Source: Candidatus Hermodarchaeota archaeon
GTDB lineage: Archaea > Asgardarchaeota > Heimdallarchaeia > Hodarchaeales > Hodarchaeaceae
Reading direction: 5' to 3'
Length of the DNA: 32,000 nt
Assembly: GCA_048886185.1 (NCBI GenBank)
Contig: JBHLKY010000025.1
Location: 21,125-53,124 of the forward strand
Numbering within the stretch: position 1 is the first letter of the stretch; every line of letters starts with the position of its first letter. The notes beneath the pieces were generated by a model, which worked only from the letters and a program-made list of their open reading frames with translations, was not told the DNA's origin and ran no database searches. Below, in pieces: positions 3,143 through 12,401 of the stretch. Position numbers and translations under genes: made by a program.

Positions 3143-4375
3143 TTATGATTCATCCTCTAAAGCGGATAGGAGTCTTTGTTGAGCAATATCTTTAGCTATT
3201 ATCCGTGGGATGAGGCCAGAATCAATTATTTTTTCACTAATTAATTTAACATTCTTCTTGATTTTTGATTCAATTAATACAAAAGCTTCTGTAGCATCCA
3301 TTTTTCGATACTCAGCAAAAGAACCAATAATCCCTCCAGCATTGACGAGAATATCAGGGAGAATAATTATACCTTTTTCAAATAATTTTCTTTCAGCATC
3401 AGGAGTTGAACTATTATTAGCTCCTTCAACAATCAATTTTGTTTTAAGTTGAGAACTAGTATCCTCATTTACTGCACAATCATATGCACAGGGAATAAAT
3501 ACATCACATTCTATTTTATAAATCTCGTCTCTGGGTAAAATCATACCCTCTTTCGAACGTTTTAAGGAACGTTCTTTACTCATAGCATATGCAGATCCTC
3601 TAATCTTTGTTATATCGATACCTTCTGGATTATAGAGTGTTCCCCAGTTGTCATTAACAGCAACTATATGTGCCCCTTTACTATTCAAATATTTAGCAGT
3701 TCCATAACCTACCTTACCAAAACCTTGGATTACTACACGTGTTTCAGATAAACAATGAGGACATTTAATTGAATCATGTAGAACTTGAAGGCTTGTTTCA
3801 AGAGCGACTCCAATTCCGAATCCAGCCATATCATTTTTATAAGCAATTCCACCAAGGTCAGTTGGTTTTCCAGTGGCTCCTAGTAGATCACCAACAGTTT
3901 CAACAAAAGCTGCAATTTCCTTTTCACCAACATTTATGTCTGGACCAGCTATATATCTGTTAGGAACAAAAGGTGCTATTTTATCTGCAAAAGCTTTAAT
4001 ATACTTGATTGAGTCAATTTCATATGGATTTGCACGAATACCAGCTTGTGCTCCTCCAAATGGGATTTCTGCTAAAGCACACTTCCAAGTCATTAATCTA
4101 GCGAGTTTAAAAATACCTAAAGGAGTAATTGTAGGAGAAATTCTAATTCCTCCCTTCCCTGGGCCTAATGTAGTATTATCAATTATTAAGTACCCTTGCA
4201 TCGATATATCAGGATCATAGACTTGAACTACTTTTTCAGGCCCCCATTTATCTAGAAAAGCTGAAATATTAACATTATTTAATGCATCAAGAATATTTTC
4301 ACTGCTTAGTATTGTTTTCTCATCGTGAGAAGACATTTTTGACTTCTCCATCAGCTTTAATCCATCTAGATTCAA
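3143..4375 (-). CDS. Glu/Leu/Phe/Val dehydrogenase family protein with catalytic Lys replaced by Gln
   Basis: GPGKGGIR, MTWKCA, PFGGAQAG, GPDINV, TGKP, VIQGFGKVG, EGAN, PDILVNAGG. The real start is probably ATG 4336 (GGAG upstream) or 4351; the track start 4375 is TTG. Confidence 0.9.
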   Translation of the reverse strand: MNLDGLKLMEKSKMSSHDEKTILSSENILDALNNVNISAFLDKWGPEKVVQVYDPDISMQGYLIIDNTTLGPGKGGIRISPTITPLGIFKLARLMTWKCALAEIPFGGAQAGIRANPYEIDSIKYIKAFADKIAPFVPNRYIAGPDINVGEKEIAAFVETVGDLLGATGKPTDLGGIAYKNDMAGFGIGVALETSLQVLHDSIKCPHCLSETRVVIQGFGKVGYGTAKYLNSKGAHIVAVNDNWGTLYNPEGIDITKIRGSAYAMSKERSLKRSKEGMILPRDEIYKIECDVFIPCAYDCAVNEDTSSQLKTKLIVEGANNSSTPDAERKLFEKGIIILPDILVNAGGIIGSFAEYRKMDATEAFVLIESKIKKNVKLISEKIIDSGLIPRIIAKDIAQQRLLSALEDES

Positions 4376-6097: not shown

Positions 6098-6556
6098 TTA
6101 TTTTTGCTTTAATATTTCTAATGCCTTTACAGCTCCAAGTATAATTGCTTCTGGTTTAGGTGGGCACCCTGGAACTTTGATATCAGTATTAACAAGATTA
6201 ACTACAGGAGCGCGAACAGAATACCCATCTTTAGCAAAAATACCTCCACTACACGCACATGTCCCAATTGCAACAACAACTTTCGGTTCTGGGACTTGAC
6301 TAACTACCCTCTTAAAGGATTCTACTAATTGTGCTGGAACAGTTCCAGTTACTAATAGAATATCACTATGGCGCGGATTATTCATTAATTTCATGCCAAA
6401 ACGTTCAATGTCATATCGGGGAGTAATACAAGCAGCAACTTCAATATCACAGCCATTACAACCACCACAAGGCATATGGTAAACCCAAGGAGACTTTTTC
6501 CGTGCCCACGAAATAATTTTATCAAGAGATCCGAAATTCTTCTTGTTTTTTATCAT
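6098..6556 (-). CDS. Group 4 [NiFe] hydrogenase small subunit (HycG/EchC/NuoB-like)
   Basis: SPW...CGGCNGCDIE, NPRHSDILLVTG, IGTCACSGG, VPGCPPKPE; GAGGT upstream. Confidence 0.93.
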   Translation of the reverse strand: MIKNKKNFGSLDKIISWARKKSPWVYHMPCGGCNGCDIEVAACITPRYDIERFGMKLMNNPRHSDILLVTGTVPAQLVESFKRVVSQVPEPKVVVAIGTCACSGGIFAKDGYSVRAPVVNLVNTDIKVPGCPPKPEAIILGAVKALEILKQK

Positions 6557-6567
6557 TAAATTCTACC

Positions 6568-7230
6568 TCAATGCCTTAAAGTGGCATAATCCATCACTAA
6601 AACGGATCCAGTTGCTTTATATTGCCCATTTATGACTGATACGAAAATTATAGCGATGAAAATCTGTAGTCCGTTTAGTATAATCGATATTGCTGGTGTC
6701 ACAAGACCAAGTGAATTGATTACAATATGTGCTCCATTTTGGATAGCCAATAAACCAACTCCTGTCTTAAAGAGATTATTCTCTGTAATCACTAGAGCAA
6801 AACCAAGAATCAAAATCATACTTCCCAAAGTAAGAACTGAAATTTCTATCTGAGAGGTTATTATAGTAGGAAAGACATTCATGATAACGAAATAGCAGGA
6901 TCCGAGAACAACGAGAAAGATTTCATAAACTACCATGGAAGAAAAGATCTTTCGGGTTGGTTCATTTGTAGTTTTATAAATACACACCCATAAGATACTA
7001 GCGGAAATGATGACTGAAAGAATTGTTACGATGTTGGATATCACATGAGGACTGATGATCAAGCTATTATCCTCCATCTCAAGGCTCAAATAAATATTGG
7101 AAAGTAATAAGGTAACTATCATCCAATAGAGGCTGTTAGTTGGTCGTTTAGCCTGGTAGGAGAAAATACCTGGTATATTAAGCATAAGGGCCATAAGTAG
7201 ATTTAATTGGAGAAATGCCATTATCAACAC
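6568..7230 (-). CDS. hyfE: HyfE-like (NuoJ/K-related) membrane subunit
   Basis: Several hydrophobic helices. C-terminal half NNLFKTGVGLLAIQNGAHIV...GSVLVMDYATLRH parallels HyfE (RNILRQIFGYCLMENGSHLV...GTLDVNNLTALKG, recalled from memory). Lies inside the hydrogenase operon. Confidence 0.7.
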   Translation of the reverse strand: MLIMAFLQLNLLMALMLNIPGIFSYQAKRPTNSLYWMIVTLLLSNIYLSLEMEDNSLIISPHVISNIVTILSVIISASILWVCIYKTTNEPTRKIFSSMVVYEIFLVVLGSCYFVIMNVFPTIITSQIEISVLTLGSMILILGFALVITENNLFKTGVGLLAIQNGAHIVINSLGLVTPAISIILNGLQIFIAIIFVSVINGQYKATGSVLVMDYATLRH

Positions 7231-7788
7231 CTAATACAGTTTTTTTATATGTAAACCTAATTCATTTGCTTTCATTTTACGACATTTTGGGCAGTAAAGA
7301 CGGGCTATTTCAAATTCATTACGAATGATTTTTCTCTTGTTCTCATCTATAATTGGTGTATCCTCGAGTTTCTTTTGTATCCAATCAAGATGTTTAATTG
7401 TTGCAAAAGATTCCTTACAGTTTTCACATAACTGCATATCAAGGATTATTATTAATTCAGAAGTATCCTGATCAGCTTGAACACTCATATCAAAAACCTG
7501 ACTCATTTCTAATGATTCTGTTGGACAGCTTTTTACACATGTTTCACAAAAAATACATGCTCCAGGATCATAATATAAATACCTTTTACTCTCATTATCA
7601 ACGAATTTATAAGCAAAGGAAGGACATACTTGTAAACAGGCACCACAGCCAATACATGTATCTTGGTCAAGCTGAACTTTACCCTTGAATCCTTTTGGTA
7701 AATGATCAGGCGGAGAAGCGGGAAATTTAGTTGTAGAAGGATTTAAGAATGATTTAAAGACCTCTACTACTGTTTTAATATTTGGCAT
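7231..7788 (-). CDS. 2x[4Fe-4S] hydrogenase subunit (HycF/NuoI-like) with C-terminal CxxC...CxxC metal site
   Basis: T-x-x-FP start motif (TTKFP), CIGCGACLQVCP, CIFCETCVKSCP, plus CENC and CPKC. Confidence 0.9.
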   Translation of the reverse strand: MPNIKTVVEVFKSFLNPSTTKFPASPPDHLPKGFKGKVQLDQDTCIGCGACLQVCPSFAYKFVDNESKRYLYYDPGACIFCETCVKSCPTESLEMSQVFDMSVQADQDTSELIIILDMQLCENCKESFATIKHLDWIQKKLEDTPIIDENKRKIIRNEFEIARLYCPKCRKMKANELGLHIKKLY

Positions 7789-7819
7789 ATGGGATTCTCC
7801 TTAAACTCTTGTTAAAATT

Positions 7820-8821
7820 TCAAATATTTGTAGTGATAACTAGTAAAAGTGGATCTACAAGTGCTAAAACAACAATGCTTGTGAGGACTATTTTAAATGC
7901 TTGATCTATTCTAAATCGTGGACTAATTGCATCAATGAAGCTTATTACAAAAACTAACCCAAAACATTTAATGAGAAAAACAATAATATTAAGAGGAACT
8001 TGAAGATTATTACCACCACCAAGGAAAATAAGTGTGAAAAGACCAGAAAAAGCAAACCACATAATATATTTTGTAACCACGATCAAACCTAGAAGAGCTC
8101 CACTGTATTCTGTGAGTGGGCCATCTATAATTTCCTGACGGGCCTCAACCATATCAAAAGGACGAATACCAAGCTTAACAATTAAACAAACCAGAACTGC
8201 GACGGCTGCGAATGGAAATTTAAAGATGAACCACATAGAATTGGTTTGTACCTCCTCAATTGCCGCAAAGTTGAAAGCACCGAGAATATTCTGTTGTAAC
8301 ATAAATAAGCTTGGTGTCAATAGAGCGAGGGCAAGTGGTAATTCAACCGCAATGATCATAGATCCCTCTCGACTTGCGCCAACTGTTGAAAATGGATTAC
8401 CTGAAGCTGTACCACCAATAATTAGTCCAATAGCTGGAAAGAGTAAGAATGTTATTACTAGGACTAGATCTCCGTACTCTAGCAATTCACCTAGTCCACT
8501 CAGAAATGATTCTCCAAGTAGTCTGATTGGAAAAAGAAGGCATACCATATATGCCCCTGTTAGAGCAATTAAGGGACCCAAATAAAAGTAAAAACGATTC
8601 GCTGTTACTGGTACTATCTGATCTTTAGAGAAAAGTTTGAGGAGATCACTCCAAGACTGGCTGAATGGGGGACCACGCCGAGATTGAAAACGAGCTATTA
8701 CCTTTCTGTTGAACCAGGACATTACTCCTCCAAAAAAGATGGCACCTATCAGGCCTGGGAAGATCAATATGTCAAATGTTAAATATATTAGATCAATCAG
8801 GATATTAATAATTTCACTCAA
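7820..8821 (-). CDS. Membrane subunit HycD/NuoH-like
   Basis: RKVIARFQSRRGP, DLLKLFSK, NPFSTVGASRE, PFDMVEARQEIIDGPLTEYSG, PRFRIDQ. Confidence 0.93.
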   Translation of the reverse strand: MSEIINILIDLIYLTFDILIFPGLIGAIFFGGVMSWFNRKVIARFQSRRGPPFSQSWSDLLKLFSKDQIVPVTANRFYFYLGPLIALTGAYMVCLLFPIRLLGESFLSGLGELLEYGDLVLVITFLLFPAIGLIIGGTASGNPFSTVGASREGSMIIAVELPLALALLTPSLFMLQQNILGAFNFAAIEEVQTNSMWFIFKFPFAAVAVLVCLIVKLGIRPFDMVEARQEIIDGPLTEYSGALLGLIVVTKYIMWFAFSGLFTLIFLGGGNNLQVPLNIIVFLIKCFGLVFVISFIDAISPRFRIDQAFKIVLTSIVVLALVDPLLLVITTNI

Positions 8822-10101
8822 GAATTCAACCTTCTAAAGTTTTTGATATTATTTTGAGCAAGTTCTCTTAACGAAAGTTGTTTTGTTTTATTTCCATTAA
8901 TATCTTTAATAAAAATCACTCGATCAGTACAGGAAAGACAAGGGTCGATGCTTCCAAAGATTATTGGTGCATCAGCAATAGTATATCCTTTTAACATTGA
9001 AGGAACGGCATAATTATTTATTAAAGATGGTGTCCTAATTCGTACTCTTTCAGGACAGGCTGTATCATTAGTAATAATATGATATGCTAATTCACCACGA
9101 GGAGGTTCGCTTTTGAATAAAGCTTCTATGCCACTTTCTATTGGTGGTAGACTCTCAAGTGCGATCTCATTACTTGAACTATCAGAGAGTTTATCCAAAC
9201 TTTGATCAATGATCGAAAGACTCTCAAAGAGCTCGTGAACACGGACGACTAATCGGGCGAGAACGTCACCATCCTTTTGAACACAGATTTTCCAATCAAG
9301 TTCATCATATGCCAAGATTGGACTGTCTTTTCTTGAATCAATGTTCAATCCAGAAGCCCTAGCTACTGGACCAACAACACCAAATCTCCGTGCATCATTA
9401 GAAGTAGTGACTCCTATACCTTTAAGGCGAGATTCTACTATTCGATCGGATAATGCTTGTGATGCGATATTACTAACTATTTTCTTAACTTCTCGTGTCA
9501 TTTTACGAATCTTAGGAATCAAATCATTCGGAATGTCCCGTCGGACGCCACCAATTGTCTGCATTCCATAATTGACCCTATTTCCAGAAATCAACTCCAA
9601 TAAATCCATCACAGCTTCACGATCACGCCAAGAGTGCATAAAAAGTGTCTCAAAACCTATTAAATCAGCTGCCACACCAAGCCATAGTAAATGGGAGTGC
9701 AATCGTTCTAATTCAAGAAAGATGGTTCTGATATATCGTGCTCGATCAGGAATTTCAGATTCTACTCCTAAAAGTCGTTCCACACAACCAGTATATGTAG
9801 TTGCATGATGATTGCTACAAATCCCGCAAACTCGTTCTGCTATGAATATATTGCGATTATAATTTCTTTTTTCCATAATATGTTGAATTCCTCTATGACT
9901 GAATCCAACTTTGATATTTGCCTCAATGATTGTTTCACCATCACAGTGGAGAGTTAAGAAAACTGGTTCAATCAATGCAGGATGGAATGGACCAATAGGA
10001 ACAGTTAAAACTCTTTTAATTTCTGAAGTGGGAATTTCTATTGGTTCTTGATTTTTCTTTGCGCTCATTCTCATCATCTCAGGATACTTTTGGCCATTCA
10101 T
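8818..10101 (-). CDS. Group 4 [NiFe] hydrogenase large subunit
   Basis: PIGPFHPALIEP, L1 ERVCGIC, EPPRGE, L2 DPCLSCTDR followed by a 33-aa extension. All four Ni-binding Cys are present. Start uncertain (10101 or the ATG ATG AGA ATG cluster just downstream). Confidence 0.95.
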   Translation of the reverse strand: MNGQKYPEMMRMSAKKNQEPIEIPTSEIKRVLTVPIGPFHPALIEPVFLTLHCDGETIIEANIKVGFSHRGIQHIMEKRNYNRNIFIAERVCGICSNHHATTYTGCVERLLGVESEIPDRARYIRTIFLELERLHSHLLWLGVAADLIGFETLFMHSWRDREAVMDLLELISGNRVNYGMQTIGGVRRDIPNDLIPKIRKMTREVKKIVSNIASQALSDRIVESRLKGIGVTTSNDARRFGVVGPVARASGLNIDSRKDSPILAYDELDWKICVQKDGDVLARLVVRVHELFESLSIIDQSLDKLSDSSSNEIALESLPPIESGIEALFKSEPPRGELAYHIITNDTACPERVRIRTPSLINNYAVPSMLKGYTIADAPIIFGSIDPCLSCTDRVIFIKDINGNKTKQLSLRELAQNNIKNFRRLNS

Positions 10102-10507
10102 ATGGAAGAATCAATCGGTAAGGAGTAGGATGACCTATGAACTCAACTCCTACCATTTCACAAATTTCTCTCTCAAAAAAATTTGCTGCAGGAATCAATG
10201 GAGTAATCGATTTAATTGAAGAATTATTTGCTGGAATCCAAGTCCGTAATATAACAATAAAATTTTTTAGAATCTTTTCTAGGGAAAAGATATACATTAA
10301 CTCAATTTTATTGAATTGAATACGTGAAGCATTGATTGTAACAAGTCTAGCTTTTTGTTGAGTAAATAAATATGAAGGAACATGAGCTATACCCGATGAT
10401 TTGATTTCCACTCCATATTGGTGGGGTTGTACCTCCCAGTATTTAATAAAATCAGGTCCGCATTCTGTTTTGATTGCTTCAAGTGTTTCTTTAACAATAC
10501 TATCCAT
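10079..10507 (-). CDS. NuoC/EchD/MbhK-like hydrogenase subunit
   Basis: SITPLIPAANFFEREICEMVGVEFIGHP...RLILPYEW. Start moved from the track's 10561 to ATG 10507, which has GAGGTGA upstream. Confidence 0.88.
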   Translation of the reverse strand: MDSIVKETLEAIKTECGPDFIKYWEVQPHQYGVEIKSSGIAHVPSYLFTQQKARLVTINASRIQFNKIELMYIFSLEKILKNFIVILRTWIPANNSSIKSITPLIPAANFFEREICEMVGVEFIGHPTPYRLILPYEWPKVS

Positions 10508-10515
10508 AAAATATC

Positions 10516-10522
10516 TCACCTC
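10516..10522 (-). promoter_or_regulatory. Shine-Dalgarno GAGGTGA overlapping the stop codon of the antiporter-like gene
   Basis: Plus-strand TCACCTC at 10516-10522, 8 nt upstream of ATG 10507. Confidence 0.6.
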
Positions 10523-12401
10523 AAGCAAGTAAAACAATAGTTGCGAGAAGTATAGTTGCACCAGCTGTTATATACCAAAGATAAGAAGTTAATCGCCCCG
10601 AATGGAAAAATTTGAAAAAATTGAGAATGGGTTTTGAAGCAAATTCAAATGGTGATGAGGGGACATATATCTGGCCTAACGACAGATAAGGAGGATCATA
10701 AAGGCCTCCTGTGAATGGAAGATTTGTTGAAGAAGATGTCCTTATAGTTTCATAACTAGGAGTTTCTCTAATTGTCGGTTTTCTGCCTGATACACGGTAC
10801 AAAAGTAAACCAAAAATTAATCCAATAAGAATCAAAATTGTCGCTGAAATTGGTGAATAAACTCCCGAAATTGTCTCTTGAACCAAGATATTAGGCCAAG
10901 CACTAATAACAAATTCTTCTCCAGGTAAAAATACTGCAATACCAGGACTAACAAAGTTATTTATTATAAAATCGGGAATTACTCCTACGACTAGACAGCT
11001 AACTGAAAGTATGATCATTGGAATCGTCATTGACTTAGGAGATTCATGAATTTCGTCAAATGGAGGAAGATCAAGGTTTGGATTAATGCCAAAGAAAACT
11101 GAACTTAATAATTTCAAGAATAACACAAGAGTTAACGCTGAAACTAGAATAGCGACAATTGCATATTCAGGATGATTTGCTTCAAAAAACGCCTCATAAA
11201 GGATTCGTTTACTAGTATAACCCCCAAAAGGTGGTATACCTGAAATACTAAGACTAGCAACAACCATGGAAATCGTTGTCAATGGCATTCTTGCAGCAAT
11301 TGAGCCTAGTTTATCAATATCACGTGCTCCAGTCGAATGTTCAACGCTCCCTGCGCCCAAAAAGAGTAAACCTTTAGAAGCGGAGTGAGTAAACATATGA
11401 TATAAAGCAGCCGCTAACCCAAAAGCGGTTCCTAACGAAAAACCAATTAAAATATAGCCGATTTGTGAAACATTACAGTAAGCAAGCATACGTTTCAGAT
11501 CATTCTGTGCAAGAGCCATGATGTTGCCAATAACCATTGTTAGTATTCCAACTCCCGAGAGAAGAAATCCAATGTTCAAGAAAGATGTAGATGAAAAAAC
11601 ACTCGACAATGAATTGATGATCTTATATAACACGATAAATACCGTATATTCGGCAACAATAATCTTTCCACCAGATAAAAGAACGCTAGTGGTCACAGGT
11701 GCCTCTGAATGAGCGTCTGGAAGCCAAAAATGAAATGGAAATGCTGCAGCTTTGGTTGAAAGACCAATAAAGACTAAAGCTATCGCTACCTTCATTTCAA
11801 ATAACGAACTGGTCTGATCCCAATTGATCTCACTTAGAATAAACGTTCCAGTGACATTTTCAATGATAAATATCCCCAGAATTGTAAACACGGATGTGAA
11901 AATTGTTATGATGAGATATTTCATTGTAGCCTCTTTTGCTTCGGGTCTCCTTCCCAAACTCACGAGAATAGCGGATGTAATGGTTGTAGATTCCATAAAG
12001 ATAAATATCCAAAGTAAATTTTCCGTAAGAACAAGAAGAACCATGGATGCGATAAATAGCATGCTAAAGAAGTAATGCCAGCGGATTTGGGTTATTTGAT
12101 AAGAATAAGAGAAAATCATTGTTAAAAAACCTAAGAAAATTGGAATAAATATCACAAAGAGAGCAATTGGATGGAAATTAAACACAAATGGGAGATCATA
12201 AAAAGGAAATTCTAATCGAAAAGGTTCAGTATTAAATATCATAAGATAACTAATGCATCCAACCATAATTAATGTGATAAGACTCGAAAAAACAGTAGTG
12301 AGTTTTCTAGATATTAGAGATATAGGTAAAACCAGTATTGCTGCAACAATTGGTAGAATTAAAACAATTTCTCCTACTAACTCCATTACTGGATCTATCA
12401 T
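10521..12401 (-). CDS. Antiporter-like membrane subunit (NuoL/HycC/MrpA-D family)
   Basis: IFMEST (TM5 Glu), TKAAAFPFHFWLPDAHSEAP, ALAQNDLKRMLAY, HSASKGLLFLGAG, SISGIPPFGGYTSK. Confidence 0.93.
   Translation of the reverse strand: MIDPVMELVGEIVLILPIVAAILVLPISLISRKLTTVFSSLITLIMVGCISYLMIFNTEPFRLEFPFYDLPFVFNFHPIALFVIFIPIFLGFLTMIFSYSYQITQIRWHYFFSMLFIASMVLLVLTENLLWIFIFMESTTITSAILVSLGRRPEAKEATMKYLIITIFTSVFTILGIFIIENVTGTFILSEINWDQTSSLFEMKVAIALVFIGLSTKAAAFPFHFWLPDAHSEAPVTTSVLLSGGKIIVAEYTVFIVLYKIINSLSSVFSSTSFLNIGFLLSGVGILTMVIGNIMALAQNDLKRMLAYCNVSQIGYILIGFSLGTAFGLAAALYHMFTHSASKGLLFLGAGSVEHSTGARDIDKLGSIAARMPLTTISMVVASLSISGIPPFGGYTSKRILYEAFFEANHPEYAIVAILVSALTLVLFLKLLSSVFFGINPNLDLPPFDEIHESPKSMTIPMIILSVSCLVVGVIPDFIINNFVSPGIAVFLPGEEFVISAWPNILVQETISGVYSPISATILILIGLIFGLLLYRVSGRKPTIRETPSYETIRTSSSTNLPFTGGLYDPPYLSLGQIYVPSSPFEFASKPILNFFKFFHSGRLTSYLWYITAGATILLATIVLLA

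Follow-up and report, generated by a model that had tools for sequence, protein, structure and literature searches.

Can a protein that keeps the fold of a glutamate dehydrogenase (GDH), and in which the catalytic lysine of the family has been exchanged for another residue, still be of use to the cell that encodes it? The question is raised by a GDH-like gene lying in a stretch of 32,000 nucleotides (hereafter the window) from a Candidatus Hermodarchaeota archaeon of the Hodarchaeales (assembly GCA_048886185.1, contig JBHLKY010000025.1, positions 21,125 to 53,124 of the forward strand), the archaeal order reported as closest to eukaryotes. An earlier examination of this DNA, made by a model from the letters and a list of open reading frames (the sequence-only reading), had noted a glutamine in place of the catalytic lysine and had proposed a pseudo-enzyme acting as a sensor or as a regulatory subunit. 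In the analysis described here it was found that the glutamine is shared by a whole clade of Asgard proteins and that the gene is under purifying selection. We consider, with moderate confidence, that the GDH-like protein is a non-catalytic, ligand-binding accessory subunit with a regulatory or scaffolding role.

Residues replaced and residues kept in the active site

When the GDH-like protein was aligned residue by residue to the solved GDHs 8owm, 8kao and 8s38, the catalytic-lysine motif of these enzymes (GGAKGG or GGGKGG) was found to correspond to PFGGAQAG, and this alignment bears out the presence of Gln110, encoded by CAA, at the position of the lysine. Residue numbers are those of the 410-residue translation from a TTG codon; 13 has to be subtracted for the protein of 397 residues, in which Gln110 becomes Gln97. 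The sequence-only reading had described the lysine as the residue forming a Schiff base, a description that has to be given up, since in the part of PMC12018205 that cites Sekimoto 1993 it is now treated as a general base. A second motif, the loop GGSLGREAATGRG of the solved GDHs, corresponds to GGIAYKNDMAGFG in the GDH-like protein. The replacement of RxEATGxG by YKNDMAGFG had been pointed out earlier, and the loop is indeed there, but it is not peculiar to this protein, as relatives that keep the lysine already read HELGTTGFG at this place. The loop GGIPHELGTTGFG is common to the subfamily, so that the absence of RxEATG characterises the subfamily as a whole and is not a defect of this protein alone. 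Throughout the clade that carries the glutamine (the Gln clade) D182 and M183 of the loop are invariant. The Thr of EATG (position 184), which we take to contact the nicotinamide carboxamide in C. symbiosum GDH, is Ala here and either A or T within the Gln clade. The Asn of GFGNVG, presumably a nicotinamide-side contact in canonical GDHs as well, is N in at least 90% of the relatives, Lys here (K221), and K, R, S or T in the Gln clade.

The residues that the sequence-only reading had listed as intact, namely the substrate lysines K74 and K98, D146 and the Rossmann motif, were found to be kept in the alignment, as were S352 of the pocket (in NAGGIIGS) and D242 at the end of beta-2. Among the features that define a GDH, the general-base lysine and the Thr and Asn of the nicotinamide side are therefore missing from the protein, while the two carboxylate-binding lysines, the Asp and the Ser are present.

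The comparison was extended over the family. At the catalytic position lysine occurs in 39 of 39 canonical GDHs and in 107 of 107 Lys-keeping members of the subfamily (146/146), and glutamine in all nine clusters of the Gln clade. At only twelve positions has a residue shared by at least 90% of the 107 Lys-keeping relatives been exchanged in all members of the Gln clade, and nine of these fall in active-site motifs (110, 144, 147, 180-183, 221 and 353), the changes being K110Q, A144G, M147I, E180 to K, N, Q, R or S, L181 to N, G or V, G182D, T183M, N221 to K, R, S or T, and Y353F. Across the same comparison K74, K98, D146, S352 and GxGxxG are untouched. No new invariant lysine appears in the alignment of the clade, and a compensating lysine at position 180 was considered and rejected, as K, N, Q, R and S all occur there. 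Judged from these alignments, the catalytic centre of the Gln clade has been remodelled and then frozen, with Q110, D182 and M183 invariant, and the residues that bind the carboxylates, like the half of the Rossmann fold that binds ADP, have been preserved.

Gene start, domains and predicted fold

The gene had been given as 3143-4375, and this frame, with 410 codons on the minus strand and a TTG start at 4375, is indeed open and is the longest at this place. The start is nevertheless likely to be the ATG at 4336-4334, which has GGAG 9 nucleotides upstream and corresponds to the Met at which the orthologues, of 397 residues, begin. Both the N-terminal dimerisation and substrate domain (PF02812; 79.1 bits, E 3e-22, gathering cut-off 25.3) and the C-terminal NAD(P) domain (PF00208; 138.7 bits, E 3.5e-40, cut-off 23.4) were detected, and the protein is a full-length member of the Glu/Leu/Phe/Val (ELFV) dehydrogenase superfamily. 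The GDH equivalogs of NCBIfam were missed widely, with scores of 165.9 against 750 for GdhA_Arch, 178.4 against 620 for GdhB_Halo and 114.9 against 536 for PRK09414.

The AlphaFold2 model, for which 80 relatives served as input, has a predicted local distance difference test (pLDDT) score of 93.8. In Foldseek it matches hexameric GDHs with E 1e-31 and template modelling (TM) scores of 0.80-0.83, the two-domain GDH fold being present. The Thermus GdhA/GdhB structure (3aoe) is among the best matches in both fold and sequence, and the B. subtilis GudB-GltAB complex (PDB 7mfm) is among the fold matches. The N-terminus is about 40 residues shorter than that of canonical GDHs of about 415-420 residues, and in sequence searches of the PDB the GDHs of 415-420 residues scored 160-177 bits and the class-I chains 1bgv and 5ijz about 80-86 bits.

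Conservation, selection and place in the family

The change from lysine to glutamine is conserved in the orthologues. It was found in all nine metagenome clusters (90% identity) that have at least 73% identity to the query, and also in five further genomes of the same genus, at 80-90% identity. The pairwise ratio of nonsynonymous to synonymous substitution rates (dN/dS) of the GDH-like gene is 0.12-0.18, the values for its neighbours being 0.08-0.13 (regulator), 0.13-0.16 (HdrA) and 0.12-0.20 (the small downstream gene for a TIR-fold protein), and omega on the branch of this genome alone is about 0.14. The gene is thus under purifying selection in its Lys-to-Gln form. Relaxed selection in this genome following the loss of a 420-residue GDH (see below) was rejected on the branch value.

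In a maximum-likelihood tree the Asgard GDH-like subfamily forms a clade of its own, apart from the canonical GDHs (SH-aLRT 100). Its hallmarks are a short N-terminus resembling that of leucine dehydrogenase (LeuDH; FLDKWGPE..VYDP) and the shared loop described above, and the protein studied here falls within the clade and has the adjoining regulator. The lysine is kept in 104 of the 120 clusters with a readable motif, the keepers being mainly annotated as Thorarchaeota. Over the 54 tree rows of the subfamily at least nine replacements were counted, in which A, C, F, M, Q, R, T or Y took its place. Every subfamily copy found in the window's genus lacks it, with Q in six genomes, F in one (G052), M in another (G050) and A twice in a third (G058). 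Several of the Lys-less lineages have additionally lost K74, K98, D146 or GxGxxG; among them the Gln clade has degenerated least. The repeated loss of the lysine and the further losses from the pocket in sister lineages argue that selection on the subfamily does not depend on catalysis. Its distribution is patchy, with members in 28 of 379 Asgard genomes and in 8 of 21 other genomes of this genus. No description of the subfamily or of its gene module was found in the literature.

The two copies of G058, located at about 391 kb and about 402 kb of G058:C1 (L011 and L014), are far more degenerate than the others. Both have Ala for the catalytic lysine and Asn for the catalytic Asp, both substrate lysines have gone and GxGxxG is no longer intact, and each copy still adjoins an Lrp-like regulator. 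Outside the subfamily, an independent Lys-to-Gln change was seen in P0244, a representative of the canonical type with 416 residues, which reads PFGGAQGG.

Gene neighbourhood

The features within the window are listed in Table 1. Of 30 subfamily loci, 26 have the divergent regulator directly beside the GDH-like gene, in the Asgard lineages sampled and with Lys-keeping and Lys-less copies alike, and in the remaining four the locus is cut by a contig end or the regulator lies a few genes away. Its model (pLDDT 91.9) has fused NirDL as the best fold match, followed by the amino-acid-binding feast/famine regulatory proteins PH1519, ST1022 and NMB0573. Paralogues of the regulator, with 41-48% identity, are found in genomes that have no GDH-like gene. 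The simplest reading of the fold matches and of the pairing is that the regulator provides amino-acid-responsive control of GDH-type operons. Repeats in the AT-rich region between the two genes were uninformative.

Table 1. Features of the GDH-like gene and its neighbours, in window positions
Feature	Position	Strand	Remarks and basis
GDH-like gene	3143..4336	(-)	397 residues plus stop from the likely ATG; Pfam domains, alignment, orthologue lengths
K74 (GPGKGG)	4154..4156	(-)	retained side-chain-carboxylate lysine; alignment
K98 (MTWK)	4082..4084	(-)	retained alpha-carboxylate lysine; alignment
Gln110 codon CAA	4046..4048	(-)	catalytic-lysine position (K125 of C. symbiosum GDH, K80 of LeuDH); alignment
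D146 (GPD)	3938..3940	(-)	retained catalytic Asp; alignment; flanking A144G and M147I clade-specific
Loop YKNDMAG, residues 179-185	3821..3841	(-)	HELGTTG in the Lys-keeping subfamily, GRxEATG in canonical GDHs
Dinucleotide motif GFGKVG, residues 218-223	3707..3724	(-)	glycines kept; Asn of GFGNVG replaced by Lys
Regulator, 360 residues	4652..5734	(+)	two fused Lrp/AsnC-like modules (winged helix-turn-helix plus RAM-like domain, twice); divergent from the GDH-like gene; model, fold matches
Small TIR-fold protein, 142 residues	2701..3129	(-)	from the conserved MLNLF start; open reading frame extendable to 3153; Atlas match
HdrA-like gene, 1174 residues	1..2664	(-)	5' part in the window; next operon gene after the TIR-fold gene

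The operon in this genome consists of the genes for the GDH-like protein, the TIR-fold protein, an HdrA-like and an FrhB-like protein, a GltB GXGXG-domain and a GltB FMN-domain protein, an HdrC-like and an HdrB-like protein, and an orphan of 255 residues, in this order, those after the HdrA-like gene lying beyond the window. The TIR-fold gene begins 13 nucleotides after the stop of the GDH-like gene. The Pfam match of its product to TIR_2 is weak (E 0.16, and E 0.03 for the copy in G050), and in the ESM Atlas the protein falls among TIR clusters (features 0.95, structure TM 0.82). Within this genus the gene was found only beside Lys-less GDH-like copies, six of them with Q and one with M (G050). 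Its motif MCEEVNLA may keep the catalytic Glu of TIR domains, a putative position at which the G050 copy has Asp.

The string of genes from HdrA to HdrB (L067 6110-14789 in G000:C25) overlaps positions 1-2664 of the window. No glutamine amidotransferase gene was found in this HdrA-FrhB-GltB-HdrC-HdrB string, and its GltB FMN-domain protein carries an N-terminal ferredoxin (Fer4). From this gene content, the string may encode an Hdr-coupled, ammonia-dependent enzyme resembling glutamate synthase. Within the genus the GltB FMN gene occurs in the six Gln-type genomes and in G056, which is uninformative on co-occurrence with the GDH-like gene owing to a scaffold gap just upstream of its GltB genes.

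Loci that keep the lysine are arranged as regulator, GDH-like gene, a conserved orphan of 266 residues and then, in five loci, a canonical GDH of 430-445 residues. The partner GDHs of subfamily loci form one clade in the tree, and a canonical GDH shares its operon with a subfamily member in seven loci (L034-37, L043, L050 and L052). In the Gln clade an insertion of HdrA, FrhB and GltB genes, to which the HdrC- and HdrB-like genes belong in this genome, splits the module into its two halves. After the insertion come the orphan and a 420-residue GDH in G065 and G067, and in G059 the orphan-GDH pair is on a separate contig; of the six Gln-type genomes three, or four if a partial copy in G068 is counted, keep the 420-residue GDH. 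It was not found anywhere in the present genome, which is 96% complete, nor in G066. The operon here ends with the orphan, and only 293 bp separate it from the next gene, on the opposite strand (L067 5005-5298, compared with L066 5497-6756 and L068 4235-5494).

The orphan family (255-270 residues) is represented here at L067 5298-6062 (G000:C25:14300-15061), outside the window. It stands directly upstream of the 420-residue GDH in every genome holding that GDH and is kept in the present genome without it. Two invariant Cys and several Trp, Arg and Glu are conserved in it, and it gave no match in Pfam, NCBIfam, a PDB profile search or the Atlas. An intact GDH does exist elsewhere in this genome; the only credible one is a class-I enzyme of 447 residues on contig 2, with all of its catalytic motifs. 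At L010 (G052:C147:13484-15868) a canonical GDH is followed 3 nucleotides later by the F-type subfamily copy, a tandem layout like that of Thermus, and in this copy Glu replaces the side-chain-binding lysine. Beyond the regulator, the window holds at 6098-12401 on the minus strand a set of Complex-I/Mbh-like membrane hydrogenase genes (NuoB, NuoD/NiFe, NuoC, NuoH and antiporter-like), which is unrelated to the GDH-like finding.

Possible function of the GDH-like protein

The consequence of losing the lysine has been studied in related enzymes. In LeuDH, mutation of the equivalent residue is stated to leave about 1.5% of the activity, in the section of PMC12018205 that summarises Sekimoto 1993, and the K80A form of B. 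subtilis Bcd was inactive and still a hexamer (PMC12181280). Since mutation of this lysine nearly or wholly abolishes activity and the oligomer survives, a non-catalytic role is the best reading for the GDH-like protein. LeuDH K80Q and K80A and Bcd K80A resemble it in being substituted at the position of Gln110; they are engineered and single changes, whereas the change in the GDH-like protein is natural, fixed in its clade and accompanied by eight further changes in the active site. The pseudo-enzyme of the sequence-only reading is upheld to this extent, by the conserved change and by the literature on lysine mutants, while its function as a sensor is something that we infer.

As an accessory subunit the protein would be folded and probably oligomeric, and would have lost the chemistry of oxidative deamination, or nearly so, with Gln in place of the general-base lysine and Ala and Lys in place of Thr and Asn, the presumed nicotinamide contacts. 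What would be kept is the pocket in which a dicarboxylic amino or oxo acid is bound (K74, K98, D146 and S352), together with the GxGxxG and D242 that bind the ADP moiety, and the protein would probably report its occupancy by glutamate or 2-oxoglutarate, by NAD(P)(H), or by both, to a partner. Two candidates for this partner are found in relatives, the 420-residue GDH that closes the operon and the GltB-type enzyme linked to Hdr. As the 420-residue GDH was not found here, the candidates in this genome would be the GltB and Hdr proteins, the TIR-fold protein and the 255-residue orphan. A bolder version, which we regard as speculative and rather doubtful, is that the GDH-like and TIR-fold proteins form a pair sensing NAD(H) and 2-oxoglutarate or glutamate, which gates an Hdr-coupled, amidotransferase-less glutamate synthase of the GltB type. 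If true, a TIR domain would here serve metabolism and not defence, and nitrogen assimilation would be controlled in a new way.

Two proteins of Thermus thermophilus provide precedents. GdhA is the inactive regulatory subunit of a GdhA/GdhB heterohexamer (PMC9570180), and ADLP, a homologue of alanine dehydrogenase in which the catalytic lysine is replaced, senses NAD+ for a CoA transferase (bioRxiv 10.1101/2025.10.31.685773). A further precedent is B. subtilis, in which GudB forms a counter-enzyme complex with the glutamate synthase GltAB (PDB 7mfm) and GDHs control GltC. GdhA (PDB 3aoe) is an inactive GDH paralogue kept as a regulatory subunit, and like relatives of the GDH-like protein it is encoded with a catalytic GDH; it differs in not being orthologous to the Asgard subfamily, which forms its own clade and has a short N-terminus of the LeuDH kind, and in having its catalytic partner encoded alongside, whereas in the present genome the search for a 420-residue partner was negative. 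ADLP is likewise an amino-acid dehydrogenase homologue without its catalytic lysine, which binds NAD(H) and regulates another enzyme, but it belongs to the AlaDH/PNT superfamily and has a CoA transferase as its partner, so that the analogy is one of mechanism only. The canonical hexameric GDHs of about 415-420 residues (Thermotoga 2tmg, Pyrobaculum 1v9l) share the fold (TM about 0.8), about 30% identity and K74, K98, D146, S352 and GxGxxG, and differ in the catalytic lysine, the Arg and Thr of GRxEATG and the Asn of GFGNVG, all of which are replaced here. By analogy, the GDH-like protein most likely works like Thermus GdhA or ADLP and belongs to the lineage of neither.

Several points weigh against a role as a non-catalytic subunit. 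The clade-invariant Q110, D182 and M183 resemble a remodelled site and not a decayed one, and another reaction could be carried out there. Ammonia partly rescues the lysine mutants of LeuDH, according to the summary of Sekimoto 1993 in PMC12018205, and by analogy residual activity in an ammonia-rich cell is possible. The tie to the Hdr and GltB genes goes back to one evolutionary event in one clade, this genome, 96% complete, yielded no 420-residue GDH of the kind that the Thermus model calls for, and both the loss of activity and the partner are inferred.

The first two of these points lead to an alternative that retains a modest probability, namely that the protein has remained an enzyme. 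Its remodelled site (Q110, D182, M183 and K221) would then run either an NAD(P)-dependent reaction, related or new, or, slowly, the normal one with free ammonia as the base. The same portion of PMC12018205 gives the rescue of LeuDH Lys80 mutants by ammonia as a rise from 1.5% to 20% of activity, K80Q being rescued less than K80A. Changes that are coordinated and clade-invariant instead of scattered would agree with a working enzyme, as would the kept substrate-binding residues, D146 and GxGxxG and the strong purifying selection. They have to be set against the lack of a compensating lysine, with five different residues at position 180, against the replacement of the residues that we take to position the nicotinamide in canonical GDHs, and against the sister lineages, which tolerate A, F, M, T and Y at the site plus further losses from the pocket.

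The sequence-only reading had also pointed to the GDH-like regulatory subunit of Thermus; a protein of this type would form a heterohexamer with a catalytic GDH and pass an allosteric signal to it. The analogy with the inactive GdhA fits those relatives in which a canonical 420-residue GDH is part of the operon: this is so in many loci, one GDH clade tracking the subfamily, the Lys-less F- and M-type copies of the genus share an operon with such a GDH, which the F-type copy abuts, and at least half of the Gln-type genomes keep it. In the present genome, as in G066, this partner was not found, and such a heterohexamer is unlikely here. Only 293 bp lie between the orphan and the next gene, purifying selection acts on the Gln gene along the branch of this genome despite the missing GDH, and the sole GDH is the class-I enzyme on another contig, a class whose PDB chains are matched far more weakly by the query. 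As the subfamily is a clade separate from the canonical GDHs, including the 424-residue type that best matches the Thermotoga and Thermus GdhB structures, the GDH-like protein is not orthologous to GdhA.

A further proposal, which we hold to be very unlikely, is that the protein is a trigger pseudoenzyme and acts as a co-regulator by binding to the Lrp-like transcription factor encoded next to it. The precedent is B. subtilis, in which the GDHs RocG and GudB control GltC (PMC6794564). The likeness lies in GDHs binding both glutamate synthase and GltC, as the GDH-like gene shares its operon with GltB-domain genes and adjoins the regulator in essentially every locus for which the flank is available. 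The Bacillus proteins are active enzymes, however, and here archaeal split GltB domains are tied to HdrA, FrhB and HdrBC, with no amidotransferase gene in the operon. The pairing is explained by a divergent regulator whose role is simply to control its neighbour; the regulator has two RAM-like ligand domains of its own and needs no co-sensor, and its paralogues occur in genomes without the GDH-like gene. Finally, a sequencing error or a decaying gene, for which nothing speaks beyond the missing lysine itself, is rejected as having a negligible chance by the same Gln in independent assemblies, the intact frame, the dN/dS of about 0.13 and the confidently predicted fold.

Significance

The interpretation that we prefer, a non-catalytic accessory subunit, would add to a small group, as experimental demonstration of regulatory pseudo-dehydrogenases was found in the literature for Thermus only. 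An uncharacterised Asgard subfamily has, under selection and still tied to glutamate genes, given up its catalytic lysine on nine or more occasions, and this repeated loss implies a conserved non-catalytic job. Since such proteins receive the automatic label "Glu/Leu/Phe/Val dehydrogenase", the capacity of Asgard archaea to oxidise glutamate may be overcounted; the present genome has one credible GDH and not two. The operon of pseudo-GDH, TIR-fold protein, Hdr proteins, split GltB and orphan offers an entry point to the control of the 2-oxoglutarate/glutamate node in these archaea, and its interest would be greater if the link between the TIR-fold, Hdr and GltB proteins proves functional.

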